From an uncultured Pelagibacteraceae bacterium (lineage in GTDB: Bacteria > Pseudomonadota > Alphaproteobacteria > Pelagibacterales > AG-422-B15), in contig CABYSM010000003.1 of assembly GCA_902521655.1 (NCBI GenBank), positions 15,297 to 79,296 on the forward strand: 64,000 bases of DNA, in the 5' to 3' direction. Positions 4,093-33,831 of this stretch are shown piece after piece. The stretch's first letter is position 1, and every line of letters begins with the position of its first letter. A program made the position numbers and the translations under genes. The notes beneath the pieces were generated by a model that worked only from the letters and a program-made list of their open reading frames with translations, had not been told where the DNA came from and searched no databases.

Positions 4093-4141
4093 AAAAGAAA
4101 TTAGTTTACTAGTATTACTATAATATCATATAACAATTTTA

Positions 4142-5347: not shown

Positions 5348-5351
5348 AATT

Positions 5352-8948: not shown

Positions 8949-8990
8949 AAAAGAACCATACACAAAGTTTAATCATATGGGTAGTTTTGT

Positions 8991-9008
8991 ATTGAATAAT
9001 CATTCAAT
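8991..9008. promoter_or_regulatory. Candidate operator: 7-N4-7 inverted repeat ATTGAAT-aatc-ATTCAAT
   Basis: Perfect 7-bp arms read directly from the sequence. It sits in the 95-nt divergent gap between the TetR gene and the 9044 operon. The half-site is shared with the palindrome at 13422-13439. Confidence 0.55.
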
Positions 9009-9043
9009 ATGAGTATCATAATAATTCAATATTCGTACATTTT

Positions 9044-14860: not shown

Positions 14861-16098
14861 TGACCTTTTTTAATCAACTTAAAGAAAGATATGAAGAAGG
14901 AAAGACTCTTCCGCAAGAGTTTTATACTGACGAAGAAATATTTTCTGATGAAATGAAAAAAATTTATTTCAAGCAGTGGCTGATGGTTGATCATGTTAGC
15001 CGTATTCCAAATCCTGGAGATTATTTTTTATTTAATGCAGAAAAAGAGTCAATAATCCTAATACGTGGAAGGGATAGTCAAGTTAGAGCTTTTTACAACG
15101 TTTGTTCTCATCGTGGTTCAAGAATATGTTTGGAAGAAGAAGGAACAAAAAAACTGTTAGTTTGTCCATATCATGCTTGGAGTTTCTCCGCAGAAGGCGA
15201 GTTAAAGTCAGCACGCTACATGCCAGATGATTTTAAAATGGAAGATTGGGGTTTAAAGCCTTGTCATATGAATATCTATCAAGGCTTGATATTCATAAAT
15301 CTCTCAATGGATGAACCAATGGATTTCAATGAGTTTATTGCCCCATTGACTGAGCTTGTAAATTTTCATAATCCTGAAAAGGCAAAGATTGCTGCTAGAC
15401 GAAAATATCCTACGAAAGCTAATTTCAAACTTGTCCTAGAAAATTTCCAAGAATGCTATCACTGTGGTCCAGCACATCCAGAGCTATGCTCAGTACATGA
15501 AAAAGACTGGGTATACACAATGGGTGCCGGTGTTGGAACGGCCCCAGAAAAAGAAACACAAGAATATTTAAAAAAGATTCAACCATGGATTGAGGATTGC
15601 AAAACAAAAGGAATCCCCTCAAAAACATATTTAGAAACTGAAGAAGGATTAAGTAAGGGATTAAATCGATACGTAGACCGTACACCCATCGGTAATGGAA
15701 ATTTATCACAAACTAAAGATGGCAAACCAGCCTCTAAACTAATGGGTCAGTTTAAAGAATTTGATGGTGGTTTATCCCAAGTAAGTTTTAATCCTTTTAG
15801 CTGTTGTTACTTTACAAATGATTTTGGAGTTATGTTTATATTTAAACCATTATCAATTTTTCAGTCTGAAGTTGAATTGATTTGGTTAGTCAATGAGGAA
15901 GCTGAAGAAGGCAAAGATTTTAATGAAGAAAACCTTACTCACATATGGGACGTAACCACTGCACATGACACAACCATTATTGAAAATAATCAAAATGGTT
16001 TGTTGTCTCATTCATTTAGTCCTGGAGTACTCTCACAGAACGAGTCTGCCGTTACGTATTTTTATGATTGGTATTTTACCAATATGAGACTACCATGA
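14860..16098 (+). CDS. Rieske [2Fe-2S] non-haem-iron oxygenase, alpha-type subunit (GbcA/Stc2/CntA-like class)
   Basis: 412 aa. Rieske ligands are C82-S-H84 ... C102-P-Y-H105 (CSHRGSRIC...CPYHAWSF). The mononuclear-Fe motif is ENFQECYHCGPAH (H201-x4-H206). Its start overlaps the upstream stop (TAATG). Confidence 0.8.
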   Translation: MTFFNQLKERYEEGKTLPQEFYTDEEIFSDEMKKIYFKQWLMVDHVSRIPNPGDYFLFNAEKESIILIRGRDSQVRAFYNVCSHRGSRICLEEEGTKKLLVCPYHAWSFSAEGELKSARYMPDDFKMEDWGLKPCHMNIYQGLIFINLSMDEPMDFNEFIAPLTELVNFHNPEKAKIAARRKYPTKANFKLVLENFQECYHCGPAHPELCSVHEKDWVYTMGAGVGTAPEKETQEYLKKIQPWIEDCKTKGIPSKTYLETEEGLSKGLNRYVDRTPIGNGNLSQTKDGKPASKLMGQFKEFDGGLSQVSFNPFSCCYFTNDFGVMFIFKPLSIFQSEVELIWLVNEEAEEGKDFNEENLTHIWDVTTAHDTTIIENNQNGLLSHSFSPGVLSQNESAVTYFYDWYFTNMRLP

Positions 16099-16115: not shown

Positions 16116-17471
16116 ATGAAACAGCTGTACAACAAGGATATTTACGACGTTAATAAACCAGTAGAAAGTTATTGGGAAGAGGTCAGCAGCATTGACCAAA
16201 ATAAGTATCCAGAATTAGTTGGAGATCAATCATGTGATGTATGTGTCATTGGAGGCGGTTTTACAGGCATTAGTACGGCTTATCATATTGCAAAAAATTA
16301 TGGTGGAGATGTAAGAGTGTTAGAATCTGGGCACTATGGTTTTGCAAGTAGTGCAAGGAATGCGGGTTTTTGCTGTCTACCAGCTACAAAGTTATCTACC
16401 ACACAATTAATAAAAAAGTTCGGTATGGAAGAGACTAAGAAATTTTTTTCATCTCAAATTGAAGGCGTTGATCTTCTTGCATCTATTATTTCAGAAAATA
16501 ATATTGATTGTGAAAAAGTAGGTGATGGCAACCTTGATGTAGCTCACCATCCAGGAAGCAGTGAAGAATTAAAAGAATGGGGAAATGAATTGAAAGAGTA
16601 TTTTGGTATTAATACAAAATGGATACCTAAAGAAGAATTTGATGAAGTTGGACATCAATCAACTGAACAATTTGGGGCAGTATTTACAGAGGCTGGATTT
16701 GCAATGAATCCCATGGCGTTTATGCGAGGCTTTGCATCAGCAACTGTAGATGCAGGTGCAAAATTACATAGTTTTTCAAGAGTAAAAAAATGGGAGAGAA
16801 ATGGGTCACATAAGCTAATAACAGATGGTGGATCAATTACTGCAAATAAAGTTGTAGTAGCAACAAATGGTTACACTGATGAGTCGCTCCATCCAAGTTT
16901 TGCTAATCGAATGATGCCAGTCCTATCAAATATTATTGTTACCAGAGAAATGAGTGATGATGAATTTAAGTTGCAAAACTACAAAACTTTAAATCCCATA
17001 TGTAATTCTAGAGAAATTTTATATTATTACAGAAGAATGCCTTCTAACAGAATGTTGTTTGGCACAAGAGGTGATACTTATGGTGATGATGCAAGTGCAC
17101 TAAAAATGAGAGAATTTATGACTCAAAAATTTAGAGGCGTTTTTCCTCATTGGAATAATATTGATATTGATCACTACTGGAGAGGTACAGTTGTTATGAC
17201 CAGAGATTTTGTACCTGCATTTGGCGCATTGGATGACGACAAGTCAGTCTTATTTTCATATGGCTATCAGGCAAATGGTAACAATACTACAGTTTATTGT
17301 GGAAAGAAGCTGGCTGAAATGATTTACGAGTCAAATAGTGGAGAAACGAATATATCAAAAGTCTATCAAGGACTCTCTCCAAAAATACCATTAGGTTTTT
17401 TAAGATTATGGTATTTAAGACTATATCTATGGTATTCAAACTTTACAGATAAAAGTAAAAAAGAAATATAA
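16116..17471 (+). CDS. FAD-dependent oxidoreductase, DAO family (PuuB-like gamma-glutamyl-amine oxidase type)
   Basis: 451 aa with the dinucleotide fold DVCVIGGGFTGISTAYHIAK. Length and layout fit PuuB/DadA-type flavoproteins. Confidence 0.65.
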   Translation: MKQLYNKDIYDVNKPVESYWEEVSSIDQNKYPELVGDQSCDVCVIGGGFTGISTAYHIAKNYGGDVRVLESGHYGFASSARNAGFCCLPATKLSTTQLIKKFGMEETKKFFSSQIEGVDLLASIISENNIDCEKVGDGNLDVAHHPGSSEELKEWGNELKEYFGINTKWIPKEEFDEVGHQSTEQFGAVFTEAGFAMNPMAFMRGFASATVDAGAKLHSFSRVKKWERNGSHKLITDGGSITANKVVVATNGYTDESLHPSFANRMMPVLSNIIVTREMSDDEFKLQNYKTLNPICNSREILYYYRRMPSNRMLFGTRGDTYGDDASALKMREFMTQKFRGVFPHWNNIDIDHYWRGTVVMTRDFVPAFGALDDDKSVLFSYGYQANGNNTTVYCGKKLAEMIYESNSGETNISKVYQGLSPKIPLGFLRLWYLRLYLWYSNFTDKSKKEI

Positions 17472-17507: not shown

Positions 17508-18392
17508 ATGTTACAAGTTTGGAAGTCTTTTTATGCAAGGAGTGATCCTGCAAAAGCTTATTCACTTCTTTCTCCTGCATTGATTCTAGTTACTTTAGCT
17601 ATGCTTATACCTTTAGGGCTAATGTTGAGTTTTAGCTTTTTCACTCAAGTTAGCTTTACTGAAATTGACTACTCTTTCACCATTCAAAGATATATTGATT
17701 TTTTTCAAAAGAACTTGCTTGTCTCTTTACTTATAAAATCAGTGAAGATTTCGTTTATCGTAACTTTCGTAACTCTCCTTACTGCATATCCTGTCTGTTA
17801 TTACATAGCTTTTTATGTAAAGAAAAATAAAATGTTATGGCTTGTTTTACTGACATTACCTTTCTGGACATCTTATCTTTTAAGGGTTTTTTCCTGGAAA
17901 ATTATACTTGGAACTAAGGGAGTTATTAATTCTTCTTTAATTAATGCAGGACTGCTTAGCGAACCTCTCACTTTTCTAATGTATTCTGAGACTGCAGTTA
18001 TCATAACGCTTACCCATGCATGGGCAGCATTTGCTTTATTACCTTTGTACGTATCATTGGATAAAATAGATTTTTCTCTAATTGAAGCCGCCAGAGACTT
18101 AGGATTGTCAAGATTAGAAACTTTTTGGAAAATTACACTTCCTTTATCTCTTCCTGGAATCATTGGTGCCATACTAATTATCTTTATTCCAACAGTAGGA
18201 GATTATGTTACTCCTGCTTTACTTGGAGGAACTGATGGGAGAATGCTATCAAATATGATCCAAGCTTACTTTGGAAAAGTAAACAATCTTCCTCTTGGTG
18301 CTGCGTCTGCAACCATTATGCTCATTACTGTTGCGATAGTGACAATGATCGTTTCATATACAACAAAAAAACTTACTCAAAGGATTTCTTAA
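17508..18392 (+). CDS. ABC transporter permease, PotB-like
   Basis: 294 aa with 6 TM segments and the EAA-loop region IEAARDLGLSRLETFWKITLP. Confidence 0.8.
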   Translation: MLQVWKSFYARSDPAKAYSLLSPALILVTLAMLIPLGLMLSFSFFTQVSFTEIDYSFTIQRYIDFFQKNLLVSLLIKSVKISFIVTFVTLLTAYPVCYYIAFYVKKNKMLWLVLLTLPFWTSYLLRVFSWKIILGTKGVINSSLINAGLLSEPLTFLMYSETAVIITLTHAWAAFALLPLYVSLDKIDFSLIEAARDLGLSRLETFWKITLPLSLPGIIGAILIIFIPTVGDYVTPALLGGTDGRMLSNMIQAYFGKVNNLPLGAASATIMLITVAIVTMIVSYTTKKLTQRIS

Positions 18393-19208
18393 GTGGAACA
18401 AAAGAACAATACATTGTTAATCTACACATTATTGTATTTTGCATTTTTATATATCCCTGTTTTATTCTTGCCAATATTTAGCTTTAATGATGCAAATTAT
18501 ATGTCATTTCCACTTTCAGGATTTACAACAGAGCATTATGAAGAAATGTGGGCAAAAACAAATTTACATAAAGCTCTTTGGGCTAGTATCAAAGTAGGTA
18601 TAGTTGCAAGTGTTGTCAGTACAACAATTGCACTTTTCGCAGCCAAAGCATTTGCACGTTATAAATTCAGAGGGCAAAATATTTCTTACGGGGCCATTAT
18701 GATTCCTTTTTTAATTCCAGAAATTATTTTAGCGGTTGCAATACTTGTTATTTGGTTAAGCCTTGGTTTTAAATTAGGACTTGTACCGGTAACTTTAGGA
18801 CATATTCTTTTTTGTACTCCATTTGCAATGCTTATTTTAATTGCTCGTATAGAAGGCTTTGATTTCTCACTAGAGGAAGCATCAAGAGACCTTGGGGAAA
18901 ATGCCTGGGGGACATTTTATCGAGTATCTCTTCCATTATATCTACCAGGTATAATTGCCTCACTTTTATTGAGTTTTATAATTTCATTTGATGAATTTGT
19001 TCTTGCGTTCTTCTTAACTGGAAGCGATGCAACATTGCCCATGTATATGTGGGCTCAAATGAGATTTATTCAGAAACTACCGCATGTGTTGGCTTTAGGT
19101 GCGGTTATAATTGTGTTTACTACTTTTATAGTTTTGTTAGCATTCTGGTTGAGAAACCTTGGTCAAGGAAAAGAGAAAGCTGAATTTGGAATAAAAATAC
19201 ATGAATAA
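18393..19208 (+). CDS. ABC transporter permease, PotC-like
   Basis: 271 aa with a GTG start directly after the upstream TAA. The EAA loop is EEASRDLGENAWGTFYRVSLP. Confidence 0.8.
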   Translation: MEQKNNTLLIYTLLYFAFLYIPVLFLPIFSFNDANYMSFPLSGFTTEHYEEMWAKTNLHKALWASIKVGIVASVVSTTIALFAAKAFARYKFRGQNISYGAIMIPFLIPEIILAVAILVIWLSLGFKLGLVPVTLGHILFCTPFAMLILIARIEGFDFSLEEASRDLGENAWGTFYRVSLPLYLPGIIASLLLSFIISFDEFVLAFFLTGSDATLPMYMWAQMRFIQKLPHVLALGAVIIVFTTFIVLLAFWLRNLGQGKEKAEFGIKIHE

Positions 19209-20283
19209 TTCTTTCATACAGATAAACGGAATTTCAAAGCATTTTGGAAATGTTAAAGCGGTAGATGATGTCTCTTTTCAAATCAAAGAGGGAGAGTTTT
19301 TCTCTCTACTCGGCCCATCGGGTTGTGGTAAAACAACTTTACTGAGATTGCTTGCCGGCTTTGAGTACCCAACTAGTGGCAACCTATTACTTGATGGCAG
19401 TGATATTACAGCATTACCTCCTGATAAAAGACCTACAAATATGGTTTTTCAGAATTATGCAATTTTCCCACATATCAATGTTGAAAAAAATGTTCAGTTT
19501 GGTTTGAGAAAACTTGGCTTAACAAACGATGAAATTATCAAAAGAGTTAAGGATGTTTTGTCGTTGGTTAAATTAGAAGGTTATGAGGAACGCTATAGCA
19601 GCCAACTATCCGGGGGTCAAAGACAAAGAGTGGCATTAGCGAGAGCTTTAGTAAGGCAGCCTAAAGTATTATTGCTGGATGAGCCACTTGGAGCATTAGA
19701 TAAAAAGTTACGTGATGAAATGCAACTCGAACTAAGAACTCTTCAAAAAGAGATTGGAATAACTTTTGTATTCGTTACACATGATCAGCAAGAAGCCATC
19801 AGTATGTCTGATCGAGTTGCGGTGATGAGTGAAGGCAAAATTCAGCAGATGTCATCTCCAAATGAGTTATATAAAAACCCTCAAAATATTTTCGTGAGTG
19901 ACTTTATTGGTGAAACTAATTTTTTAAAAGCTAATACAGGGTCAAAGGATGGAGAATATATTAATGTTAACATTGAAGATCTTGGTTCGTTCAAAATAAA
20001 GAATAATCTCAATATAAGTGAAAATGCCTCAGAAGTTATTTGCAGTGTTCGTCCAGAGACTATGATGATAGACACAGAAAAATCAGACTGGGATATTTGC
20101 TTAGAAGGTAAAATTAAGCAAACATCATATTTGGGTGAAATGACAAAATTTTATGTTGAAACAAAAGAAATAGAAAAAATTATAACTGTATCATCACAAT
20201 ATTTTGATAATCAGTCTTTCCAAGATAGCAAATGCTTTATCAGCATAAACTTAGCTGATATTTCCTTACTAAATAAAAAATAG
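19201..20283 (+). CDS. ABC transporter ATP-binding protein, PotA-like
   Basis: 360 aa with Walker A GPSGCGKTT, signature LSGGQRQRVALARAL and Walker B LLLDEPLGALD, plus a C-terminal regulatory/TOBE-like extension. Confidence 0.85.
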   Translation: MNNSFIQINGISKHFGNVKAVDDVSFQIKEGEFFSLLGPSGCGKTTLLRLLAGFEYPTSGNLLLDGSDITALPPDKRPTNMVFQNYAIFPHINVEKNVQFGLRKLGLTNDEIIKRVKDVLSLVKLEGYEERYSSQLSGGQRQRVALARALVRQPKVLLLDEPLGALDKKLRDEMQLELRTLQKEIGITFVFVTHDQQEAISMSDRVAVMSEGKIQQMSSPNELYKNPQNIFVSDFIGETNFLKANTGSKDGEYINVNIEDLGSFKIKNNLNISENASEVICSVRPETMMIDTEKSDWDICLEGKIKQTSYLGEMTKFYVETKEIEKIITVSSQYFDNQSFQDSKCFISINLADISLLNKK

Positions 20284-20334: not shown

Positions 20335-21423
20335 TTAGCCGCCAGCTACCATTTCAGCCCACTGAGCTTCCATGTAGTCAGTCACTTCGTCAGACGGCAT
20401 CACAGAGAACATTCCATTATTTAAATGTTCGATAGGATTTGATGCAACTCCACGTTCAGCTAATTCGTCAGCTGTAAGTGTGCTAAATCCAGCTTTATTA
20501 CTGTGTCCATAACCCCACTCACTTAATAAGTAAGCAGATGTTTCAGCACTAGTAGCACCATTGATCATCGCGTATGCTTTATCAAGGTCTGCACCTTTAA
20601 CAATCGCAAGACCACATGCCCAAGTCATTGTGCCATTGGAAGGCTGCATCATTTTTGCACCTGCACTCCATGCTATTTCGTTCCATCCAAGAGCTACGTC
20701 TATTTCTTCGTTACCTAGCGCTTCGATCATTGAAGAAGTATCTCCAAAGAATGCACGAATTTGACCATTGTCTCTCATTTCACGAAACTTATCGATACCT
20801 TGATCAATTGCAGCTTTTGTTAATTGATCTTGCTCTCTTATGTCAATTCCAAGATGGTGCATCATTAAAAATAATGAGTCTGCAGCAGAGTCTAAAATAC
20901 CTACTTTACCTTTTACTCTTGGGTCTTCCATTAGAGCAAAGCTTTCATTTGAGGCGTCCATCCAATCAATCCTGTCTGCCATGTAAAACAATGTAGTATC
21001 TCCCCAGTCGACTGGCGCAAAATAATGCTTACCATCAACCATGCCACTTGGCAGGTCTCTAACTTCAGGGAACATGTCATTCCAGTTTTCAATTCTTGAT
21101 GGATCAAGCGGCTCTAATACGCCTGCTCTTACCCATCTTTTTATTTCACCTTGACATGGCCATGCTAAGTCAACTTCAAAGCCTGCTTTTAGTTTTTGCA
21201 ATCCTTCTTCAGCATCACCAAATATTGAGTATTCAGGGGAACCGTGCTCTTCAGCGTATGTTCCAAATAGACCATCATCATCGTAGCCACCCCACAGGAA
21301 TACAGATCCTGGCTCATCTGCAAAAGCTTTAGTTGTTGACGTTACACCAGCGATAAAAACAAACGATAGTGATACAATCAAAGCTTTTACAAAAGAATTT
21401 TTCATTTCTTTGTATTTTGGCAT
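20335..21423 (-). CDS. Periplasmic substrate-binding protein of a PotD/PotF-type ABC importer
   Basis: 362 aa with a signal peptide ending TKAFA|DEPGS. It is an acidic, Trp-rich mature protein, convergent with the potBCA-like genes. A GAGGAAG Shine-Dalgarno lies 7 nt before the ATG. Confidence 0.7.
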   Translation of the reverse strand: MPKYKEMKNSFVKALIVSLSFVFIAGVTSTTKAFADEPGSVFLWGGYDDDGLFGTYAEEHGSPEYSIFGDAEEGLQKLKAGFEVDLAWPCQGEIKRWVRAGVLEPLDPSRIENWNDMFPEVRDLPSGMVDGKHYFAPVDWGDTTLFYMADRIDWMDASNESFALMEDPRVKGKVGILDSAADSLFLMMHHLGIDIREQDQLTKAAIDQGIDKFREMRDNGQIRAFFGDTSSMIEALGNEEIDVALGWNEIAWSAGAKMMQPSNGTMTWACGLAIVKGADLDKAYAMINGATSAETSAYLLSEWGYGHSNKAGFSTLTADELAERGVASNPIEHLNNGMFSVMPSDEVTDYMEAQWAEMVAGG

Positions 21424-21458
21424 AATTAATCTTCCTCTTTTTTTTATTTATACCAAAA

Positions 21459-21486
21459 ATTGTACACCTATAAGGTCGTTGGTCAA
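21459..21486 (-). promoter_or_regulatory. Candidate sigma70-type promoter for the binding-protein gene (TTGACC-N16-TACAAT on minus strand)
   Basis: The reverse complement of 21481-21486 is TTGACC and of 21459-21464 is TACAAT. It lies in the 67-nt gap between the amidase stop and the SBP start. Confidence 0.45.
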
Positions 21487-21490
21487 TATA

Positions 21491-22987
21491 TTAAAGGGGA
21501 ATCAAGGGACGATTTTTGTTTGAATTAAGCCATGGATCTAACATTTCGTAGTTGTACCCACCCTGGAATACTAATTCATCGCTGTAAGATCGAGCAATAA
21601 TTTGGATTCCTGTTGGAATATTGCTAGAACTTAATCCTGAAGGGACTGATAGGACCGGTAATTTACCTAACATATTAAATGGATGTGACATGACCCAAGA
21701 AAAATCTGCACACTTCTGCTCTTTATTATTGATAATGATATTTTCATTAACAATATCAATATCAGCCTTAATTGAAGGTAAGGAGTTTGTAGGACATATA
21801 AATAAATCGTAACTGTCTAATATTGGTCCAATTTCTGAATACATTCGGCCTGTGATCTCTGAGCTTTCAATAACATCATATCCAACATAAGCCCCTATTT
21901 GATCATGATAGTACTTCTCATTATTTTGTATCGCTCTGATATGTAATTCAGGGACTTCAGCAAACATTTTTGCATAATCAGTTAATAGTTTTTTTTCATC
22001 GTTTGAAAATTTTGCTATTAGGCCATAAAATGAATTAGCGTAATGACTAAAGCAAACTGAATTTACTTCATCTCGATTCCAATTTAATTTTACTTCTGTA
22101 ATTGTTGCACCAAGAGCCTCAAATTTTTTTAGAGCCTCCAATGTATTTTTTTCAACTTCTTCATCCACCTCAAAAAATCCAAGATCAAGTGAATAAGCAA
22201 TTTTCCAGTTCTTAATATTCTCAAACTTATTAGGAATAATTTTTTTGGGTCTGAGTGAAGCAATATCATTTTTATTTGGACCACTCATAACATTTTGCAT
22301 AAGGGCACAATCACTAACTGTTCTCGCAAGGGGACCAACAACACAATACGGATCGTGATTAAAAGGATAACCCATTGGATTTCTTCCATAGGGAGGTTTG
22401 TAACCAACGACTCCGCAGGCCCCAGCAGGGATACGAATTGATCCACCTATATCACTACCAGTTGCAAGTGATGCACAACCCGACGCTAGTGCAGCAGCAC
22501 TCCCCCCACTTGAACCTCCCGGTGTCATATCTAAGTTCCAGGGATTTCTTGTGACGCCATTAACTTTGGAATGGCAGAATGATGTAAGTGAAAATTCTGG
22601 GTTAGTTGTGCGTGCATGAATTATTGCACCAGAGCTTACAAGGGACTCTACATCTACATCAGTTCCTTCTGCTATTACGTCTTTATAGATTAAGCTTCCA
22701 TTCTTATTAGGTTGTCCCTTTATATTAACTTCATCTTTAATTGCTAAAGGTAAACCTTCCAAAGGCAAAGTAGATTTATCTTCTGTATATTTTAATTCTG
22801 AATGTTTCGCTTCTTTCAATGCTTCTTCAAAGCGAAAAAAATTAAAAGCATTAATTTTTGGGTTTACATTTTCAATTCTTTTTATTGTCTCATTTAATAG
22901 CTCAACTGGAGACAAAGATTTATTTTTAAATTTTTCCAGGGCTTCAGAAGCTGATAAATAACAAATATCGAGGTCTAAACTACTCAT
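21491..22987 (-). CDS. Amidase-signature (AS) family amidase
   Basis: 498 aa with the AS motif GGSSGGSAAALASG, GSDIGGSIRIPA and the upstream catalytic Lys context LAIKDEV. Confidence 0.85.
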   Translation of the reverse strand: MSSLDLDICYLSASEALEKFKNKSLSPVELLNETIKRIENVNPKINAFNFFRFEEALKEAKHSELKYTEDKSTLPLEGLPLAIKDEVNIKGQPNKNGSLIYKDVIAEGTDVDVESLVSSGAIIHARTTNPEFSLTSFCHSKVNGVTRNPWNLDMTPGGSSGGSAAALASGCASLATGSDIGGSIRIPAGACGVVGYKPPYGRNPMGYPFNHDPYCVVGPLARTVSDCALMQNVMSGPNKNDIASLRPKKIIPNKFENIKNWKIAYSLDLGFFEVDEEVEKNTLEALKKFEALGATITEVKLNWNRDEVNSVCFSHYANSFYGLIAKFSNDEKKLLTDYAKMFAEVPELHIRAIQNNEKYYHDQIGAYVGYDVIESSEITGRMYSEIGPILDSYDLFICPTNSLPSIKADIDIVNENIIINNKEQKCADFSWVMSHPFNMLGKLPVLSVPSGLSSSNIPTGIQIIARSYSDELVFQGGYNYEMLDPWLNSNKNRPLIPL

Positions 22988-23039
22988 AAGATTATTTTAT
23001 TTTAATTTATTAATTAATAAAATATATTGAATTCACACC

Positions 23040-24134
23040 ATGATTGATCAAAACATTAGAGACATTATTAAAAACCAAGACCCTTATACAGGAATGGATC
23101 AGCTTTTTTTCACTAACAAAGCATTGTTTGATCTAAGTTATGAGGCTGTTTTCAAGAAACAGTGGGTATTTCTTACTCATCTATCTTATTTTAATGAAAA
23201 CAATACATTCATTTATCAAATTAATGGCGGATTTGTTGAAATAAAAAAGTCTAAAGATAATAATTTAACTATCTCATCATCTTTACCTGATTTCAAATTT
23301 CATTTAAAAGTTTATGAAAGCTTAATTTTTGTCAACTTTTCTGAAGTACCATATTCATTTGAAGAATTCATAAAACCACTAGAACCATATATTAAAATTC
23401 ATGGCCTGAATGACGGCAAGATCGCATTTCAAAAAGACTTTATATTTAATGCTTCTCATCTCGCAACCATTCACAACTTCAAAGAATGTGCACATTGTTG
23501 GGGAGGCGAGTTTACTCACAAAGATTATTTAAGTGTTCATGGAGAGGCGTATTGTAATTCTTATGGAGCTGGGGTTGGCTCAGGAATTGAATCTCCTGAA
23601 TTCAATCAACGTATAAAAGATTGGACATTTGAAAGTCAAAATAAAGGTTTGTTTGTTGGCGAGTACAGTGAAGACACCAATAAATATTTTAGAATTGCAG
23701 AGCGCACTCCTTTACCTGAAGGCATACTGTCTGAGACAATGGATGGTAGCTATTCATGCTCTTCATTAATGGGTGACTTTAAAACTATAGGACCAGATAA
23801 TGGTTATACCGCTATTGGTTTTAGCCCATTCAATAGCTTTGTTGCCAATAATGAATTTGTAATTCTTTTTTTATTTACTCCTGTTAGTCAAAATAAAACA
23901 ATCGTTACTCAATATTGGGTTACTCACAAAGATGCTGAAGTTGACATTGATAAAATGATTTTTCTTTGGGACCAAACATCAACAGAAGACTCCCAATTGT
24001 GTGAAATGAATCAAAAGGGCATTGAAAGTCGAGCTTATCAGCCTGGAAAGTATGGCGAACTTGAGACAAGTTTGGTTCAATATCAAAAGTTCTATCTAAG
24101 TCATTTACAAAATCACGTTAATGGACTGACTTAA
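23040..24134 (+). CDS. Rieske-oxygenase alpha-subunit paralogue lacking the Rieske cluster ligands (catalytic SRPBCC-type domain only)
   Basis: 364 aa and collinear with the 14860 protein (FKKQW, LIFVNF, NFKECAHC, ERTPLPEG..L..T.DG, WDQTSTED..NQ). It has no Cys in residues 1-149 and carries a deletion of about 40 aa where CxH...CxxH should be. The Fe motif is altered to H152-x7-H160. Confidence 0.65.
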   Translation: MIDQNIRDIIKNQDPYTGMDQLFFTNKALFDLSYEAVFKKQWVFLTHLSYFNENNTFIYQINGGFVEIKKSKDNNLTISSSLPDFKFHLKVYESLIFVNFSEVPYSFEEFIKPLEPYIKIHGLNDGKIAFQKDFIFNASHLATIHNFKECAHCWGGEFTHKDYLSVHGEAYCNSYGAGVGSGIESPEFNQRIKDWTFESQNKGLFVGEYSEDTNKYFRIAERTPLPEGILSETMDGSYSCSSLMGDFKTIGPDNGYTAIGFSPFNSFVANNEFVILFLFTPVSQNKTIVTQYWVTHKDAEVDIDKMIFLWDQTSTEDSQLCEMNQKGIESRAYQPGKYGELETSLVQYQKFYLSHLQNHVNGLT

Positions 24135-24148
24135 GTCAGAGATATAAA

Positions 24149-25519
24149 ATGAAAGTTGCTACACAAGCTGAATTTGATGAAGTATTAAGTCAGCACAATA
24201 ATATTCAATATGTCGATGCAATCTTCACAGATTTATGTGGTTATGTAAGAGGAAAACGTTTCCCCGTCCTTGAAGCAAATAAAATTTTTTCAGATGGCGT
24301 TCTTCTCCCATTCTCCGCATTTTATCTAGATGTTCTAGGAGGAGTAACAAACACCCTAAATCTAGGTTGGACAGATGGTGATCCTGATGGTGTTCTGGTT
24401 CCTGTTAAAGGAAGTATTAAGCCAGTCCCGTGGGATGAACGCTTCTTACAGGTATTAATCACAATGAGAAAAGAGCAAGAAAATTGGGGAGTGATACAAG
24501 ACCCATCTGAGGTTGACCCTAGAAATATTCTAAAAAAAGTTATGAAGAATTTTAAGAACACTGGATTGAAGCCTGTGGTTGCTTTTGAATTAGAATTTTA
24601 TCTTTTAGACAAAAATAGGGATGAGTTTGGGAAACCAATACCTGCTGAAGGTGCTAATAAAACTCATGTTTATGGCATACCAGACCTTGATCTCTTCGGT
24701 AAGTTATTTGATGATATTAACAAGAATTGCGAAATGCAAAATATACCAGCGACTACTGCTTCAAGTGAATTTGCTGCGGGACAGTATGAAATTAATCTAA
24801 AGCACACTGGAGATCTTCTAAAAGCCGCAGATGATGCTGCTTTATTAAGACGTATTATTAAAGAGACAAGTGAACGACATGGCTATGAAGCAACATTTAT
24901 GGCAAAACCCTTTCTAGATCAAACTGGTAATGGAATGCATCTTCATCTCTCCGTTTATGATGAAAATGAAAAAAATATATTTGCTACTTCCAATCGTTAC
25001 GGAAATAAAAAATTAAAAAGTGCTATAGCTGGTTTTCAATCAATGTTTTATGATAGTTTTCCAATCTTTATTCCAAATCGAAATGGTTACAGAAGAATAG
25101 AAACAAGAAATTTCGTTCCTGTTAATACAAGTTGGTCCTGGAATCGAAGAGATGTTTCATTAAGAATACCAGCTGGATCAAATGACACAAAAAGAATTGA
25201 ACATCGCGTAGCTTCATCAGATGCTAATCCTTATCTAGTCCTAGCATGCTTATTAGCAGGGTTGCATAATGGCCTTACTAATGAATTGACCCCATCGAAC
25301 CAAGTTGATTTCGATAATAATGAAGGAGCGGATAAAGAAGCTGATATTGATATGCCAAAAAATATGGACCAAGCGTTAGCGCGTTTCCAATCTTCCAAAC
25401 TATTAAAAAAATATCTTGGGAAAGAATATCTTGATCTTTACACTGCTGCAAAACAAGGTGAAATTGATCATGTCGAGTCAAGTTTTGTTCCTCGAGAGGA
25501 ATATGATCTCTATTTATAA
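24149..25519 (+). CDS. Glutamine synthetase-family ligase (PuuA/GmaS-like gamma-glutamyl-amine synthetase type)
   Basis: 456 aa with GS catalytic-domain stretches: EFAAGQYEINL, KPF..QTGNGMHLHLS, RIPAGS...RIEHRV.SSDANPYL. It has no GlnA-type adenylylation loop that I can recognise. Confidence 0.75.
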   Translation: MKVATQAEFDEVLSQHNNIQYVDAIFTDLCGYVRGKRFPVLEANKIFSDGVLLPFSAFYLDVLGGVTNTLNLGWTDGDPDGVLVPVKGSIKPVPWDERFLQVLITMRKEQENWGVIQDPSEVDPRNILKKVMKNFKNTGLKPVVAFELEFYLLDKNRDEFGKPIPAEGANKTHVYGIPDLDLFGKLFDDINKNCEMQNIPATTASSEFAAGQYEINLKHTGDLLKAADDAALLRRIIKETSERHGYEATFMAKPFLDQTGNGMHLHLSVYDENEKNIFATSNRYGNKKLKSAIAGFQSMFYDSFPIFIPNRNGYRRIETRNFVPVNTSWSWNRRDVSLRIPAGSNDTKRIEHRVASSDANPYLVLACLLAGLHNGLTNELTPSNQVDFDNNEGADKEADIDMPKNMDQALARFQSSKLLKKYLGKEYLDLYTAAKQGEIDHVESSFVPREEYDLYL

Positions 25520-25521
25520 TC

Positions 25522-26235
25522 ATGACTGAATTACTTTTTAACAATGACGCTTACCTCACTCAGTCTGAAGCAGTTGTTACAAACGTCGATCAAAACTCTA
25601 TTCAATTAAATCGAACAATTTTTTACGCTGAGTCAGGCGGACAGCCGGGTGATCAAGGAGAGATCATCCTAGGAGATCAAATTTATAAAGTTACTGACAC
25701 CCAGAAAGGTAATTCTCCAAATGAAATTATTCATTTAGTCGACGGTGATATTGATCAGAGCATTGTTGGTAAAGAATGTGAGATTAAAATTGATTGGGAA
25801 TTGAGACAAAGTCATATGAGAATGCATACCTCATGTCATATTCTGTGTAGTTTGATTGATGCTTTAATTACAGGTGCTTCAGTTGGAGCACAAAAAAGTA
25901 GAGTTGATTTTGATGTTGACCCGAGTTTGCTTGATAAAGAGGCAATGAATCAACAGATTGATGAAATTATTAAAAATAATTTTCCTGTATTCACAAAACA
26001 AATTTCTGGAGATGAATTTAGAGATAACCCTCATTTAGCAAAAGGCGCTGCTGTTAGCCCTCCTATAATTGATAACAAAGTACAAATTGTTCAAATCGGT
26101 GATGATAAAATTTTAGATATACAGGCGTGTGGAGGCACTCATGTGAAATCAACGGGTGAGATTGAAGGATTAGAGATTGGAAAAATTGAAAATAAAGGTA
26201 AAAGAAACCGAAGAGTAAACATAAGATTTAAATAA
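25522..26235 (+). CDS. AlaX-like protein (threonyl/alanyl-tRNA synthetase editing / SAD domain)
   Basis: 237 aa with zinc motifs H-x3-H (HTSCH) and C-x3-H (CGGTH). It starts 2 nt after the GS-like stop, and its own stop overlaps the next start (TAATG). Confidence 0.7.
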   Translation: MTELLFNNDAYLTQSEAVVTNVDQNSIQLNRTIFYAESGGQPGDQGEIILGDQIYKVTDTQKGNSPNEIIHLVDGDIDQSIVGKECEIKIDWELRQSHMRMHTSCHILCSLIDALITGASVGAQKSRVDFDVDPSLLDKEAMNQQIDEIIKNNFPVFTKQISGDEFRDNPHLAKGAAVSPPIIDNKVQIVQIGDDKILDIQACGGTHVKSTGEIEGLEIGKIENKGKRNRRVNIRFK

Positions 26236-27020
26236 TGACGAATATTCTCATCAGAAGTGATAAAAATTCAGTTGCTATACTAAGTTTGAATGACCTTCCA
26301 GCAAATAGTCTAAGTATGCCTATGATGGAAGAAATTCAAAATCAACTAACAACTATTGATCATGATGACTCAATTCGAGTTATAATCATAAAATCTGAAA
26401 GTGATAAAATATTTTCCTCAGGTCATAATTTAAAAGAGGTAAAAGGCTTTCTTGATAATAATGATACTAAATCTCAAGTTGATTTATTTTCAACGTGTTC
26501 CTCAATGATGAAACAAATTCAGGCTTTAAGTAAACCAGTCATTGCGCAGGTCAGAGGCATAGCAACTGCAGCTGGTGCCCAACTCGTTGCCTCATGTGAT
26601 TTAGCTTATGGATCATTAGATTCAAAATACGCAACTCCAGGAGTAAACATTGGATTATTTTGTCATACACCTCAAGTTGCTGTATCAAGGACAATTGGCA
26701 GAAAACCAATGATGGAAATGCTGTTAAGTGGAGAACCTATTTCGTCTGAAAGGGCTGTACAAATTGGATTGATCAATGCTGCGGTTGATAGTGCAGATTT
26801 AGAAAAAACAGTTCAGAAGTCATGCAATGATATTTGCAATAAATCAGCAGCTGTTATTGCCATGGGGAAAAAAAGTTTCTACCGTCAAAGTGAAATGCCT
26901 TTAACTGACGCATATGACTTTACAAGTGCAGAGATGGTAAGGAATTTAACACTTAATGATGGTAATGAGGGAATATCTTCTTTCCTTGAAAAAAGAGACC
27001 CGAACTGGTCTAACGATTAA
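26235..27020 (+). CDS. Enoyl-CoA hydratase/isomerase (crotonase) family protein
   Basis: 261 aa. Crotonase-fold stretches: IIIKSESDKIFSSGHNLKE and AQVRGIATAAGAQLVASCDLAY. Confidence 0.8.
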   Translation: MTNILIRSDKNSVAILSLNDLPANSLSMPMMEEIQNQLTTIDHDDSIRVIIIKSESDKIFSSGHNLKEVKGFLDNNDTKSQVDLFSTCSSMMKQIQALSKPVIAQVRGIATAAGAQLVASCDLAYGSLDSKYATPGVNIGLFCHTPQVAVSRTIGRKPMMEMLLSGEPISSERAVQIGLINAAVDSADLEKTVQKSCNDICNKSAAVIAMGKKSFYRQSEMPLTDAYDFTSAEMVRNLTLNDGNEGISSFLEKRDPNWSND

Positions 27021-30362: not shown

Positions 30363-31538
30363 ATGATTTTTTCTAAATTCCTAAACGCTACAAACTGGCA
30401 TAAGCGTCCATATACTGAAATTCTTGATGAAGTCAGGGAGATTACAGATTATTTAGATCAAAATAGTAATTTTAGACAAGTATGGTTGAGTGAACATCAC
30501 CTACAAACTACAAATAATTGGACAATGGAGTGCATACCCAATCCAATTCTACTGGGCTCAGATCTTGCAGCCCGCACAAAAAATATTCGTATCGGATTAG
30601 CCGCAGCTATCGCAACCTTTTGGAATCCTCTTAGATTAGCTGAGGATGTTGCGCTTTTAGATAACTTGTCATCAGGCAGGTTGGATGTTGGTCTTGGTCG
30701 AGGCGTATTTGGAAAAGAAGCTATTCACATGAACATTGAGGCCGATTTGAAAGATCAGCCAAAAAACTTTCGATTGTTTGTTGAAACACTAGACATATTA
30801 AAGAAGGCTTGGACGCAAGAATACTTTTCACATAAAGGTGAATTCTATGAGTACCCAGCTCCAGAATTTAAATATTCTAATCCACTGTTGAATGAAACAT
30901 CAGATGTTGTTGATCCGGAAACAAATGTCTTAAAGAAAATTAGTATAGTTCCTAAACCGTTTCAAAAAAATCTTCCTTTATGGCAAGTAGTTGATAGCCC
31001 TAGTTCAATTGAGTTTGCTGCAAAGAATGGTCTTAATTGCTTGATGTGGCTACCAACAATTGCTTCCTTGAAGTCACGCTTTGAGATTTATGCAAATACT
31101 AAATCTGAGGTTGAAAAGAGAGATGTTCCTATGGGCGAGGGAATTGCATTGGTTCGTGATTGCTTTATTGCCGATACAATGGAAGAAGCTAAAGAATTAG
31201 CGGGTGAGCATTTTTTAAGATATTTAGTATCTGTTTGTGGCGGAGGCAGAGGAGTAGGCATCTTTGCAAACCCTGGTGAGGAATTACCAAAAACAGATAA
31301 TCCAATTGATCTTTTAACATACGATTGGATCCATCCGAGAAACCAATTAGTAGGTACAGCTGAATTTGTAATCGATAAAATTCACGAATTAAAGTCAGAA
31401 TTAAATCTCCAGCAGTTGGCAATATGGTCAAATCCTCCTGGAATGCCTCACAATGCAGCGATGAAATCATTAAAATTATTTAATGAAAAAGTGGCTCCTC
31501 AATTTAGTGATGATAATTTAATTAAGAAAGTTTCTTAG
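30363..31538 (+). CDS. Luciferase-like (LLM class) flavin-dependent monooxygenase
   Basis: 391 aa. TIM-barrel LLM stretches: VWLSEHH, LAEDVALLDNLSSGRLDVGLGRG. The size is typical of SsuD/LadA-like group C monooxygenases. Confidence 0.7.
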   Translation: MIFSKFLNATNWHKRPYTEILDEVREITDYLDQNSNFRQVWLSEHHLQTTNNWTMECIPNPILLGSDLAARTKNIRIGLAAAIATFWNPLRLAEDVALLDNLSSGRLDVGLGRGVFGKEAIHMNIEADLKDQPKNFRLFVETLDILKKAWTQEYFSHKGEFYEYPAPEFKYSNPLLNETSDVVDPETNVLKKISIVPKPFQKNLPLWQVVDSPSSIEFAAKNGLNCLMWLPTIASLKSRFEIYANTKSEVEKRDVPMGEGIALVRDCFIADTMEEAKELAGEHFLRYLVSVCGGGRGVGIFANPGEELPKTDNPIDLLTYDWIHPRNQLVGTAEFVIDKIHELKSELNLQQLAIWSNPPGMPHNAAMKSLKLFNEKVAPQFSDDNLIKKVS

Positions 31539-33235
31539 TGTCTTCAAAAAAAATGACTGGCGGCGAAGCCGTTGTTGAAACTTTATTGGTAAATGAAGTT
31601 GAGGTGGTTACGGGGCTGATTGGCTCATCGACACTTGAGATCTTGGATGGCCTTTACAATAACGCTGAAAAAATCAGATATATAGGATGCAGACATGAGA
31701 GCAATGGGATGATCATGATGGATGCCTATGCCAGGTATACTGGGAAAAATGGGGTATTTCTGAGTGGCCAAGCAGGTCCGGGAGTAAGCAACACAGTGAC
31801 TGCGATGGCTCAGGCAAAGGCTGCTTTTTCACCAGTTGTTAACCTAGCTGGCGCAATTGCATCAGATCACAAAGGTAAGGATGCTTTTCAGGAAATAGAT
31901 CAAGTCAGTTTGATGCAAGCGGTTTCAAAAAAAGTTTTTGAAGTAAAAGAGGTTGAGTCAATACCAGAAGTTTTAAATGAAGCGATGCAAACAGCACTGA
32001 CACCACGGTGCGGCCCTGTTCATGTAGATATGCCTAGAGATGTTTTAGGTAAATCAGCTGAATTTAATCAGCCTACGAAATTTAAATCTATATCAACTTT
32101 AGCTGCTGATGAGGAAAGTTTAAAAAAAGCTGTAAAGCTTTTAAGTGAAGCACATAAACCTGTAATTCTAGTTGGAGCAGGAGTTAAGAATTACGGAACA
32201 AGTGCAGCAGATAGTGTTTTAAAGTTAGCTGAACTTCTCAATGCCCCATGTACCACTTCTCCAGGACACGGTGATGCAATTCCATATAGTCATCCGTTAA
32301 ATGCGGGATCAGCCGGCCCTCGTGGATCAGGGTTAGGAACAAAACTTTTAAGAGAGGCGGATGTGATTCTAGTTTTAGGAAGTCGATTAGGTTTTAATAC
32401 AACGTTCTATTCTTACGAGAACCTAAATGAAAAAGCTTCAATTATACAATGTGAAATAGATCTGAATTCGATAGGCCGATATTTTCCTGTTGAAGTAGGC
32501 ATACATGCTGATGCTAAAACTGTAACTGATGAGCTTTCTAAAATGCTTGAAGCACACAAGTCAAAAAAAGAAGTACAAGATTGGTCAGATCAATTCAAAG
32601 ACAATAGAAAAAATTATTTTGATAAAAGAGATGCTGACGCGGATACTAAAAGTGTACCAATTTTACCTTCAGGATTATTTAAAGAATTAAGGGGAGCCTT
32701 GCCGGAGGATTGTGTCGTAACTTTGGATGCAGGCACAATGTGCCTCCAGTTAACTGATGCACTTCAATATCATCAACCAAAGAGTTTATTTTCACCACTC
32801 GATTTTGGGCTGGTTGGATTTTCTTATCCTGCTGGACTAGGAATAAAACTTGCAGCCCCTGAAAGACCCGTAGTTTCTTTTCATGGAGATGGTGGCATGT
32901 CCATGGTTATCCCAGAGCTTTCAACTGCAATCGAAAATAATATTAATACTGTTATATGTGTCATGAATAACGGCACGTGGGGCGCTGAAGCGGCCTACCA
33001 AAAAGATTTTTTTGAGGGACGTTTTATTGGCGCTCATATCACAACTCCTGAGTTTGATAAAGTTGCTGAATTGTATGGATGTAAGGGCATAAAGGTTGAA
33101 AAAGCAGGAGAAATTGGAGATGCGATTAAAGCCGGAATTGAGGCTGACTGCCCAACAGTAATCGATGTTCAATGTTCCCCTGATGCACTATATTCATTCA
33201 GGCAGGACTCATTTAAACATAAAGTAAAACAGTAG
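31538..33235 (+). CDS. Thiamine-diphosphate-dependent enzyme (acetolactate-synthase-large-subunit-like)
   Basis: 565 aa with a GTG start sharing 1 nt with the upstream TAG. The N-terminal Pyr domain has GGEAVVETLL..VE.V.G and GPGVSN. The ThDP motif is GDGGMSMVIPELSTAIENNINTVICVMNNG. Confidence 0.8.
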   Translation: MSSKKMTGGEAVVETLLVNEVEVVTGLIGSSTLEILDGLYNNAEKIRYIGCRHESNGMIMMDAYARYTGKNGVFLSGQAGPGVSNTVTAMAQAKAAFSPVVNLAGAIASDHKGKDAFQEIDQVSLMQAVSKKVFEVKEVESIPEVLNEAMQTALTPRCGPVHVDMPRDVLGKSAEFNQPTKFKSISTLAADEESLKKAVKLLSEAHKPVILVGAGVKNYGTSAADSVLKLAELLNAPCTTSPGHGDAIPYSHPLNAGSAGPRGSGLGTKLLREADVILVLGSRLGFNTTFYSYENLNEKASIIQCEIDLNSIGRYFPVEVGIHADAKTVTDELSKMLEAHKSKKEVQDWSDQFKDNRKNYFDKRDADADTKSVPILPSGLFKELRGALPEDCVVTLDAGTMCLQLTDALQYHQPKSLFSPLDFGLVGFSYPAGLGIKLAAPERPVVSFHGDGGMSMVIPELSTAIENNINTVICVMNNGTWGAEAAYQKDFFEGRFIGAHITTPEFDKVAELYGCKGIKVEKAGEIGDAIKAGIEADCPTVIDVQCSPDALYSFRQDSFKHKVKQ

Positions 33236-33244
33236 GATCATATT

Positions 33245-33826: not shown

Positions 33827-33831
33827 TATTC

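Follow-up and report, generated by a model that had tools for sequence, protein, structure and literature searches.

The Puu/Pau, aniline, ipu and GmaS systems already exemplify the logic of attaching a gamma-glutamyl tag to an amine, modifying the conjugate and removing the tag. The importer of the Escherichia coli Puu system is PuuP. The oxygenases Stc2 and GbcA catalyze N-demethylation of amino-acid-like amines. The locus analyzed here is located in a 64,000-nt stretch of DNA from an uncultured Pelagibacteraceae bacterium (contig CABYSM010000003.1; this whole stretch is hereafter referred to as the window; G+C content of about 34%) and encodes an amidase-signature (AS) family amidase on one strand and, divergently, an oxygenase-like protein and a glutamine synthetase (GS)-like ligase on the other strand. 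The close relatives of the window are all from uncultured Pelagibacteraceae or, more broadly, Pelagibacterales (SAR11) represented by single-cell and metagenome genomes; SAR11 is the most abundant heterotroph of the surface ocean. The original prediction for this locus was that the three genes comprise a sub-cluster of the tag-modify-untag type around a 52-nt divergent promoter, by analogy with aniline dioxygenase, isopropylamine (ipu) and methylamine (GmaS) systems.

Two lines of published work are directly relevant to the oxygenase-like protein. The alpha subunits of the CntA group form head-to-tail trimers in which electrons pass from the Rieske cluster in one subunit to the iron site of its neighbor; the bridging glutamate (E205 in CntA) is essential for this inter-subunit electron transfer, its mutation abolishes the CntA activity, and the substrate of Stc2 is held on the iron via a carboxylate (PMC7948474). 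NdmC, a component of the NdmCDE caffeine N7-demethylase of Pseudomonas putida CBB5, is a non-heme-iron monooxygenase subunit of the Rieske oxygenase family that has no Rieske cluster and receives one in trans, from NdmD (PMC4408171). With regard to gamma-glutamylation in SAR11, a published reconstruction assumed that the two cultured strains studied lack a complete route (PMC8437039), and puuBCD genes have been mentioned in some SAR11 genomes (PMC12636525).

The Rieske-less oxygenase paralogue and the PuuA-type ligase

A Pfam search started with the oxygenase-like protein identifies the catalytic domain of Rieske oxygenases (PF00848) but not the Rieske domain (PF00355). Alignment with members of its own family and with the nearest Rieske-containing relatives reveals a clean deletion of 49 residues that takes out both [2Fe-2S] loops (CxHRG...CPYHxW). 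Among proteins of solved structure, it is closest to 3n0q and to Stc2, a stachydrine demethylase (E-values from 1e-27 to 6e-32), and in the alignments with these structures, query residues 74 to 87 match chain residues 75 to 137. The 2-His-1-carboxylate site (H152, H160 and D317), together with E149, which is located three residues ahead of the first iron-ligand histidine, i.e., at the position of the bridging glutamate, is invariant in 15 of the 15 aligned sequences, and this invariance extends to 60% identity and to the Rieske-containing relatives. The AlphaFold2 model of the protein has a predicted local distance difference test (pLDDT) score of 88.9 and is confident except near an insertion at the iron site; a Foldseek search started from this model detects similarity to 3n0q and Stc2, with TM-scores of 0.81-0.85, followed by CntA. 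Sequence identity to the solved structures is 22-23% in the Foldseek alignments; the metagenomic relatives that are nearest among those with a Rieske domain share 40-41% identity with the protein.

The gene shows no sign of decay. Intact open reading frames (ORFs), 364-366 aa in length, are retained among homologs with 98% to 60% identity, which form clusters with hundreds of member sequences, and dN/dS is 0.05-0.18, within the same range as in the neighboring genes; given that dS is saturated (above 1) in every pair, these values are read qualitatively, as an indication of strong purifying selection. Thus, a decaying pseudogene can be rejected on account of the full-length ORFs, the invariant catalytic residues and the purifying selection. 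An exhaustive HMMER search of 1.84 billion representative sequences shows that the Rieske-less family forms a single 50%-identity cluster that is confined to Pelagibacterales, with the next match, at 41% identity, being a full-length Rieske protein. Judging by these comparisons of sequences and models, the oxygenase-like protein is best classified as a group V Rieske oxygenase alpha subunit that has been stripped of its cluster and has retained the iron site; the absence of the cluster ligands was overlooked in the original prediction. Because its own [2Fe-2S] cluster is absent, the protein cannot function as a self-sufficient Rieske oxygenase. The loss of the Rieske domain in this family appears to be independent of that in NdmC.

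Other, independent Rieske-less proteins of the GbcA/Stc2 type are encoded in GC-rich organisms, namely, P0182 (L019, positions 8001-9098), P0227 (L021, positions 8001-9005) and P0201. All three retain the ECYHC...H motif and lack CxH...CxxH. Neither P0182 nor P0227 has a GS gene in its vicinity, and their genomic contexts are unrelated, with a methyltransferase in one case and a PhyH protein together with a large FAD protein in the other. The existence of these proteins implies that the cluster was lost more than once in the GbcA/Stc2 clade.

The second protein in question, the GS-like ligase, falls far below the cut-offs of all relevant NCBIfam models: 195.5 bits against a cut-off of 429.15 for GlnA (TIGR00653), 195.1 bits against 470 for type III/GlnT (TIGR03105) and 187.6 bits against 650 for gamma-glutamylputrescine synthetase (NF045547). 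The ligase was compared with a small reference set consisting of one sequence per clade: E. coli PuuA and GlnA; IpuC of pTC1, which is encoded within a P450/GATase cluster; haloarchaeal GlnA2; a Variovorax TdnQ-type protein from a cluster of GS-like, GATase and oxygenase alpha and beta genes; and Aminobacter GlnT/GmaS, which is encoded beside genes of the N-methylglutamate pathway. In a bootstrapped neighbor-joining tree of these sequences, the window ligase and its marine relatives cluster with E. coli PuuA (100 of 100 replicates). Sequence identity is consistent with this placement, with 39% to E. coli PuuA compared with 24-29% to all other references (24% to the Variovorax TdnQ-type protein, 27% to Aminobacter GlnT/GmaS and 27% to E. 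coli GlnA).

The metal-, ATP- and glutamate-binding residues of GlnA are conserved in the window ligase (E129, E131, E212, E220, H269, H271, R321, R339, R344, E357 and R359), a feature that is common to all GS-like ligases. By contrast, D50 and the E327 flap, which handle ammonium in GS, have given way to P and F, respectively, in the ligase and its orthologs (E. coli/Salmonella numbering; PuuA has P and Y at these positions). The protein is therefore predicted to be a catalytically intact, ATP-dependent ligase of the PuuA type in which the ammonium site of true GS has been lost. A ligase of this type suggests that the substrate is an amine of the aliphatic or polyamine type. Neither mgs nor mgd genes were detected in the window, and the ligase is set apart from the GmaS clade.

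The GS-like gene is tightly linked to the gene of the Rieske-less protein. Its start codon is located 14 nt past the stop codon of the oxygenase-like gene, and the subsequent genes of the co-directional run, which encode an AlaXM-like protein and an enoyl-CoA hydratase family protein, are separated by 2 nt and by an overlap, respectively, so that a four-gene operon facing the amidase is predicted. The enoyl-CoA hydratase gene is the final one in this run and is kept downstream in related loci. The AlaXM-like gene, which begins 2 nt past the GS stop codon and encodes a protein with intact HxxxH and CxxxH zinc motifs, is a variable member of the operon that occurs only with the 456-aa variant of the GS-like protein and is missing with the 449/450-aa variant. 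Analysis of 44 species-level genomes of Pelagibacteraceae shows that GS is directly downstream of the oxygenase-like gene in all 44, and that the divergent amidase gene is present in all 40 loci for which upstream sequence is available; the full-length Rieske gene, the DAO-family gene, the Pot-like ABC system and the solute-binding protein (SBP) gene are located upstream in every locus with coverage. Such an arrangement exceeds what would be expected by chance.

Comparison across more distant lineages separates the components of this association. The nearest Rieske-containing homologs (36-40% identical, in L009 and L012) are encoded beside a GS-like gene, between two DAO genes. In L024, from another marine alphaproteobacterium, the amidase gene (57% identical) is divergent from an orthologous GS gene (45%), with no oxygenase-like gene between them, and these two genes are followed by genes for an SBP, PotABC, an acyl-CoA dehydrogenase (ACAD), a TetR-type regulator and two amine-oxidase-like proteins. 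About 5 kb away in the same locus, there is a DAO/GS2-Rieske/DAO module, in which the Rieske protein is 49% identical to the full-length Rieske protein of the window and 35% identical to the Rieske-less one. The gene order in L023, from a gammaproteobacterial metagenome-assembled genome, is AO1-AO2-GCV_T-DAO-GS (PuuA-like). In L022, a contig of the MarineAlpha5 type, the PuuA-like GS gene is located among genes for agmatine-deiminase-family (PAD_porph) and CN_hydrolase proteins, and a Pot-like ABC importer is encoded, together with its binding protein, within a few kb on the same contig, which also carries genes for another GS, an aminotransferase and a Rieske oxygenase. Thus, group V Rieske oxygenases are linked repeatedly to GS-like and PuuB-like enzymes. 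The amidase/GS/transporter association is ancient, and the insertion of the oxygenase-like gene, in the SAR11 lineage, is more recent.

A search for solved relatives of the amidase identifies, as the best ones, the aryl acylamidase 4yj6 and GatA. The protein contains the GGSSGGS motif and K84 within LAIKDE, i.e., the AS signature with the catalytic lysine, and is predicted to be an intact AS-family hydrolase. Its score is below every NCBIfam equivalog cut-off (for the GatA model, 206 bits against a cut-off of 481), and no GatB or GatC partners were found. More distant homologs, at 49% identity, are encoded beside an ABC importer and beta-lactamase-fold hydrolases, with no GS. GatA hydrolyzes the gamma-amide of glutamine, and given this kinship, removal of a gamma-glutamyl tag by the amidase is chemically plausible; the amidase may be responsible either for such untagging or for pre-processing of an imported amide.

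The original prediction stands in part in the light of these results. All its coordinates hold, including the divergence of the amidase and oxygenase-like genes across 52 nt, the start of the GS-like gene 14 nt after the preceding stop codon and the position of the C26 hydrolase gene. The placement of the GS-like protein outside bona fide GlnA/GSIII is borne out by the tree, the subthreshold GlnA score and the replacement of D50 and E327, and the expected linkage of the three genes is found in the related genomes, with the amidase/GS pair occurring also in L024. The pairing of a ligase with an oxygenase was recognized in part correctly: oxygenases of the Stc2/GbcA type do recur beside GS-like genes, but the one encoded here has no [2Fe-2S] cluster.

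The surrounding amine catabolic island and the divergent spacer

The three genes are not a self-contained unit: they represent the distal end of an amine catabolic island of about 24 kb (from about 3.3 to 27 kb of the window) with a Pot-type transporter and Puu-like enzymes (Table 1). The island encodes a PuuD-like C26 hydrolase, for which the best NCBIfam match, NF008471, is below the cut-off. It further encodes an ACAD and, in total, two omega-aminotransferases. The full-length, GbcA-like alpha subunit is the sole protein of the window that contains a [2Fe-2S] Rieske domain. The DAO-family flavoprotein is 45-47% identical to the products of the DAO genes located beside GS-like genes in L012, L023 and L024. 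Among the importer components, which are 56-69% identical to their counterparts in L024, the ATPase reaches the cut-off of the potA subfamily (375 against 356). The SBP is 49% identical to the amidase-adjacent SBP of L024, and its alleles among the loci range from 41% to 99% identity. The similarity of the aldehyde dehydrogenase to PuuC is not specific, as several aldehyde dehydrogenase models outscore it.

Table 1. Features of the amine catabolic island and adjacent genes in the window
Feature	Coordinates	Strand	Supporting data
Peptidase C26, PuuD-like gamma-glutamyl hydrolase	3328-4092	-	PF07722, 194 bits; 33% identical to E. coli PuuD
TetR/BetI-type regulator, head of the island	8304-8963	-	PF00440, PF13977; 39% identical to the TetR protein of L024
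Two CrtI/amine-oxidase-fold flavoproteins and stand-alone GCV_T (tetrahydrofolate (THF) aminomethyltransferase-like)	9044-13389	+	Pfam, NCBIfam
Class III (omega) aminotransferase	13457-14860	+	PF00202; NF005447 cut-off passed
Full-length group V Rieske oxygenase alpha subunit, GbcA-like	14860-16098	+	PF00355, PF00848; CSHRG...CPYHAW
DAO-family flavoprotein, PuuB-like	16116-17471	+	PF01266; 31% identical to E. coli PuuB
PotB/PotC/PotA-like ABC importer, two permeases and ATPase	17508-20283	+	Best NCBIfam matches PotB, PotC, PotA
PotD/PotF-like SBP	20335-21423	-	PF13416, PF13343
AS family amidase	21491-22987	-	498 aa; PF01425, 294 bits
Divergent intergenic spacer, putative shared promoter/operator	22988-23039		52 nt; conserved core of about 40 nt
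Rieske-less paralogue, group V (Stc2/GbcA-type) Rieske oxygenase alpha subunit	23040-24134	+	364 aa; PF00848
PuuA-clade GS-like gamma-glutamyl-amine ligase	24149-25519	+	456 aa; PF00120, 299 bits
AlaXM-like tRNA-editing-domain protein	25522-26235	+	NF040865, 201.6 bits, below cut-off of 300
Enoyl-CoA hydratase family protein	26235-27020	+	PF00378; NF006008, 316.8 against cut-off of 313 (reached)
Aldehyde dehydrogenase, possible PuuC equivalent	34607-36079	+	PF00171; 36% identical to E. coli PuuC

The spacer between the amidase gene and the predicted operon contains a core that is nearly invariant among loci whose flanking proteins share just 66-82% identity. Within this core, at positions 22993-23024, there is a perfect 9-bp inverted repeat, TATTTTATT-N14-AATAAAATA, which encloses the palindrome TTAATTAA. 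The repeat is unique in the window, compared with 0.06 matches (with at most 2 mismatches) expected by chance per window; it is found again in L007 and L008 but not in the spacer of L001, which lacks the amidase. Being kept in amidase-containing loci, this repeat is a candidate operator for the TetR/BetI-type regulator of the island. A scan with the sigma-70 consensus yields no match within the 52-nt spacer and a total of 22 matches compared with 24.2 expected from shuffled sequences; neither the sigma-70 nor the terminator counts are above those in the shuffles, so that the scan is uninformative in this AT-rich genome. Thus, of the 52-nt divergent promoter that was originally proposed, the spacer and its conserved core are observed directly, whereas the promoter itself finds no sigma-70 consensus match and the spacer is considered a putative shared promoter/operator on the basis of its geometry and conservation.

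The trio of two flavoproteins (AO1 and AO2) and GCV_T at 9044-13389 has counterparts in L023 (2929-7434) and L024 (16380-19476). It is kept beside DAO and PuuA-like GS genes in both alpha- and gammaproteobacteria, with 73% identity between the AO1 proteins of the window and L024. The best model match of the stand-alone GCV_T is the C-terminal half of trimethylamine N-oxide demethylase, so that the trio looks like an uncharacterized THF-dependent N-demethylase or amine oxidase module. Another conserved run of genes, at 30363-36079, encodes a luciferase-like monooxygenase, a thiamine pyrophosphate enzyme, an AA_synth protein (PF06684), an alpha/beta hydrolase and the aldehyde dehydrogenase. This run is also found downstream in L001, and its place is taken by ExoI/RmuC in L007; it may be a separate catabolic module.

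Comparison of the SAR11 loci reveals mosaic patterns of sequence identity. Between the window and L007, identity is 82% for the Rieske-less protein, 61% for GS and 66% for the amidase; the corresponding values for L004 are 66%, 75% and 80%. The SBP alleles are 41%, 67-69% or 82-99% identical across the loci. Such mosaic identities among the window (positions 20335-25519), L004, L007 and L026-L069 suggest recombination, with allele swapping within the island. In genomes of the L004 type, an SLT-PdxA-LysE-C26-ACAD-aminotransferase block (L004 15246-19688) is located directly downstream of a PNPOx gene, about 8 kb from GS, whereas in the window the same block (1115-6719) is 17 kb upstream of the amidase; hence, rearrangement shifted the PuuD-like gene relative to the operon. 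In L022 (5941-15451) and L024 (5441-7566), the PuuA-like GS gene is flanked by one to three PAD_porph genes, CN_hydrolase and DUF6356, none of which is present in the SAR11 window. These neighbors hint that guanidino amines (agmatine or its relatives) feed the same pathway in the L022 and L024 islands.

Proposed pathway and alternative explanations

The combination of these genes is compatible with the hypothesis that the operon is involved in gamma-glutamylation of an aliphatic, polyamine-type amine and that the oxygenase step is fed by a Rieske cluster in trans, which we consider quite possible, if still somewhat short of probable. Under this hypothesis, the Pot-like ABC system would import the amine, and the PuuA-type ligase would gamma-glutamylate its primary amino group. 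The tag might also supply an amino-acid carboxylate handle of the kind used by Stc2-type oxygenases for substrate positioning, which would explain the recurring linkage between the ligase and the oxygenase. The Rieske-less subunit could then hydroxylate or N-dealkylate the gamma-glutamyl amine with electrons obtained in trans from a Rieske cluster. By analogy with NdmC/NdmD, this cluster would most plausibly be that of the full-length paralogue at 14860-16098, which is always co-resident and with which the Rieske-less subunit would form a mixed trimer of the head-to-tail type. The PuuB-like DAO, the aldehyde dehydrogenase and the omega-aminotransferases would subsequently process the carbon chain, and the PuuD-like C26 hydrolase, the amidase or both would remove the glutamyl tag or another amide intermediate. 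The most specific version of this scheme, namely, that SAR11 and its marine relatives possess a gamma-glutamyl-dependent oxidative route for aliphatic amines, with a Stc2/GbcA-type oxygenase acting on the conjugate, and that in Pelagibacteraceae a dedicated Rieske-less, "parasitic" subunit borrows the cluster of its paralogue in a mixed trimer, is doubtful. If true, such cluster borrowing would be a second, mechanistically distinct answer to the NdmC problem and could be viewed as an iron-saving adaptation in the iron-poor ocean.

Several observations weigh against the oxidative scheme. The Rieske-less protein contains an insertion of 3-4 residues between the two histidine ligands, and the iron-site region (residues 150-190; pLDDT 56-78) is the least confident part of the model. 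No GbcB/FNR-type reductase, stand-alone Rieske protein or ferredoxin partner is encoded in the 64-kb window among the ORFs of at least 100 aa compared with Pfam, a set that includes all such ORFs except for the 1506-aa one at 55946-60466. This absence by itself says little because the genes for full-length Rieske relatives in L009, L012 and L024 also have no adjacent reductase. The mixed trimer is purely conjectural. The match of the SBP to PotF is weak (46 bits). Because SAR11 genomes are highly syntenic, the gene linkage seen inside the family argues only weakly for functional coupling, so that the cross-lineage data carry more weight; and in these, the GS-like genes of L009 and L012 belong to a different subfamily (32-33% identical to the window GS), and the oxygenase/ligase association is accordingly at the level of families rather than orthologs. 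Finally, the amidase, along with AlaX, is absent from a deeper SAR11 lineage (L001-L003; 60% identical) in which the oxygenase-like/GS pair is kept, and of the residues that anchor glutamine in GatA (Y309, R358 and D425 in Staphylococcus aureus GatA), only R358 aligns with an arginine of the amidase, Y309 and D425 being unmatched in this low-confidence part of the alignment.

Some of the same observations would be expected if the locus encoded an ordinary polyamine route of the Puu/Pau type and the Rieske-less protein were a non-catalytic or structural partner of the full-length Rieske oxygenase or a non-redox protein of the SRPBCC fold, e.g., a metal-dependent hydrolase or lyase or a ligand-binding protein, that owes its position to operon compaction in a streamlined genome. 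All Puu homologs are present, and such a route does not require an oxygenase; the amidase/GS unit of L024 indeed manages without an oxygenase-like gene between its members, other Rieske-less GbcA-like proteins are found in unrelated contexts, and the altered spacing of the iron-ligand histidines and the lack of a nearby electron donor fit as well. However, the invariance of H152, H160, D317 and E149 is hard to explain in a structural or non-redox protein, and the strong purifying selection on the gene, its strict adjacency to GS despite the recombination that shuffles the alleles of the island and the linkage of relatives from the same oxygenase clade to GS-like genes in other lineages all speak against this explanation, so that we regard it as rather unlikely. 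The order of the steps is a separate issue. The amidase might act ahead of the ligase by hydrolyzing an imported amide (e.g., a lactam, an amino-acid amide or an N-acyl or carbamoyl polyamine) and releasing an amine or ammonia, the product then being captured by the PuuA-like ligase and eventually untagged by the PuuD-like C26 hydrolase that is already encoded in the island. This scenario is tenable, although on the whole somewhat improbable. It agrees with the direct adjacency of the amidase to the SBP and the ABC importer in SAR11 and in L024, with the aryl acylamidase and other amide hydrolases being the best structural relatives of a protein that has no equivalog assignment, with the context of the 49%-identical relatives and with the unmatched glutamine-anchoring residues. 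Conversely, GatA, a glutamine gamma-amidase, is among the closest characterized relatives, so that a gamma-glutamyl amide remains a plausible substrate; the divergent putative promoter common with the ligase operon suggests co-regulation; and the C26 gene is 17 kb away in the window.

Two further explanations fare much worse. The analogy with aromatic-amine (aniline-dioxygenase-like) or isopropylamine/methylamine systems, on which the original prediction relied, holds for the logic alone, i.e., the combination of a GS-like ligase, an oxidizing enzyme and a hydrolase that is seen in the reference clusters of Variovorax (GS-like protein, GATase and ring-hydroxylating oxygenase alpha and beta subunits) and pTC1 (ipuC, a P450 system and GATase). 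Against this sole point of support, the ligase groups with PuuA and is separated from the IpuC, GmaS and TdnQ-type references. The match between the oxygenase-like protein and the alpha subunit of aniline dioxygenase covers just 37 residues, which is not meaningful. There is also no beta subunit, P450, adjacent class I GATase or mgs/mgd gene, and the transporter is of the Pot type. A system of this kind is thus highly improbable, and the aniline-dioxygenase-type reading in particular was rejected given the position of the ligase in the PuuA clade and the unrelated alpha subunits. It is extremely improbable, too, that the GS-like protein is a bona fide glutamine synthetase that uses the ammonium released by the amidase: the Gln-synt_C domain and the complete set of catalytic residues are in place, but the GlnA score is less than half of the cut-off, both ammonium-handling positions are replaced, and the grouping with PuuA has full bootstrap support at 27% identity to E. 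coli GlnA, and the candidate was rejected on these grounds.

Relationship to known systems

The literature searched contains no description of this cluster or of any Rieske-less oxygenase besides NdmC; apart from the work on CntA and the mention of puuBCD cited above, what was found are general studies on Puu, GmaS and aniline. Two features appear to be undescribed in that literature: the presence, in an abundant marine lineage, of a conserved, Rieske-less group V subunit with an intact iron site, the gene of which is predicted to share a transcript with that of a PuuA-type ligase, and the wider linkage of group V oxygenases with GS-like and PuuB-like enzymes. The observation itself is firm, and the proposed mechanism would be plausible. 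A PuuA-type ligase, together with PuuB-, PuuC- and PuuD-like partners and additional oxidative enzymes, is encoded by many uncultured Pelagibacteraceae. The recurrent linkage of group V Rieske and GS-like genes suggests a wider, uncharacterized class of amine catabolic pathways and, if the mixed trimer works, there would be a new wiring of Rieske oxygenases.

Among the described systems, the E. coli Puu and Pseudomonas Pau pathways resemble the window in the PuuA-clade ligase, the PuuB-, PuuC- and PuuD-like genes (31%, 36% and 33% identity, respectively), the polyamine-type importer and the omega-aminotransferases. Unlike Puu/Pau, the genes in the window are dispersed over about 30 kb instead of forming one operon, and the ligase is predicted to be co-transcribed with a Rieske-less paralogue and faces an AS amidase, neither of which exists in Puu/Pau. 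The window adds to this set a full Rieske oxygenase, two CrtI-like flavoproteins and GCV_T. With the aniline dioxygenase and ipu systems, the locus shares the logic alone, that is, gamma-glutamylation of an amine, oxidation of the conjugate and hydrolysis of the tag; it differs from them in the clade of the ligase, the unrelated oxygenase, the lack of a beta subunit, P450 or adjacent GATase, and the context of an aliphatic polyamine-like transporter. Similarly, the amidase shares with GatA and other AS enzymes their fold and the Ser-cisSer-Lys signature but, in contrast to GatA, scores below the GatA cut-off and is encoded without GatB or GatC.

For the Rieske-less protein, the closest comparison is with Stc2 and GbcA (group Vb; PDB entries 3vca, 4qup and 3n0q), with which it shares the fold, the 2-His-1-Asp site and the bridging glutamate. 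In contrast to these enzymes, it lacks the CxH...CxxH ligands, with about 49 residues deleted, and contains the 3-4-residue insertion between the iron-ligand histidines. Going by the published description, it is similar to NdmC in being a catalytic subunit of the Rieske oxygenase family without a Rieske cluster of its own. Unlike in NdmCDE, neither an NdmD-like reductase with an extra Rieske cluster nor an NdmE-like glutathione S-transferase was detected among the window ORFs of 100 aa or more that were compared with Pfam (all except for the 1506-aa one); the only nearby Rieske domain is, instead, that of the paralogous full-length alpha subunit.

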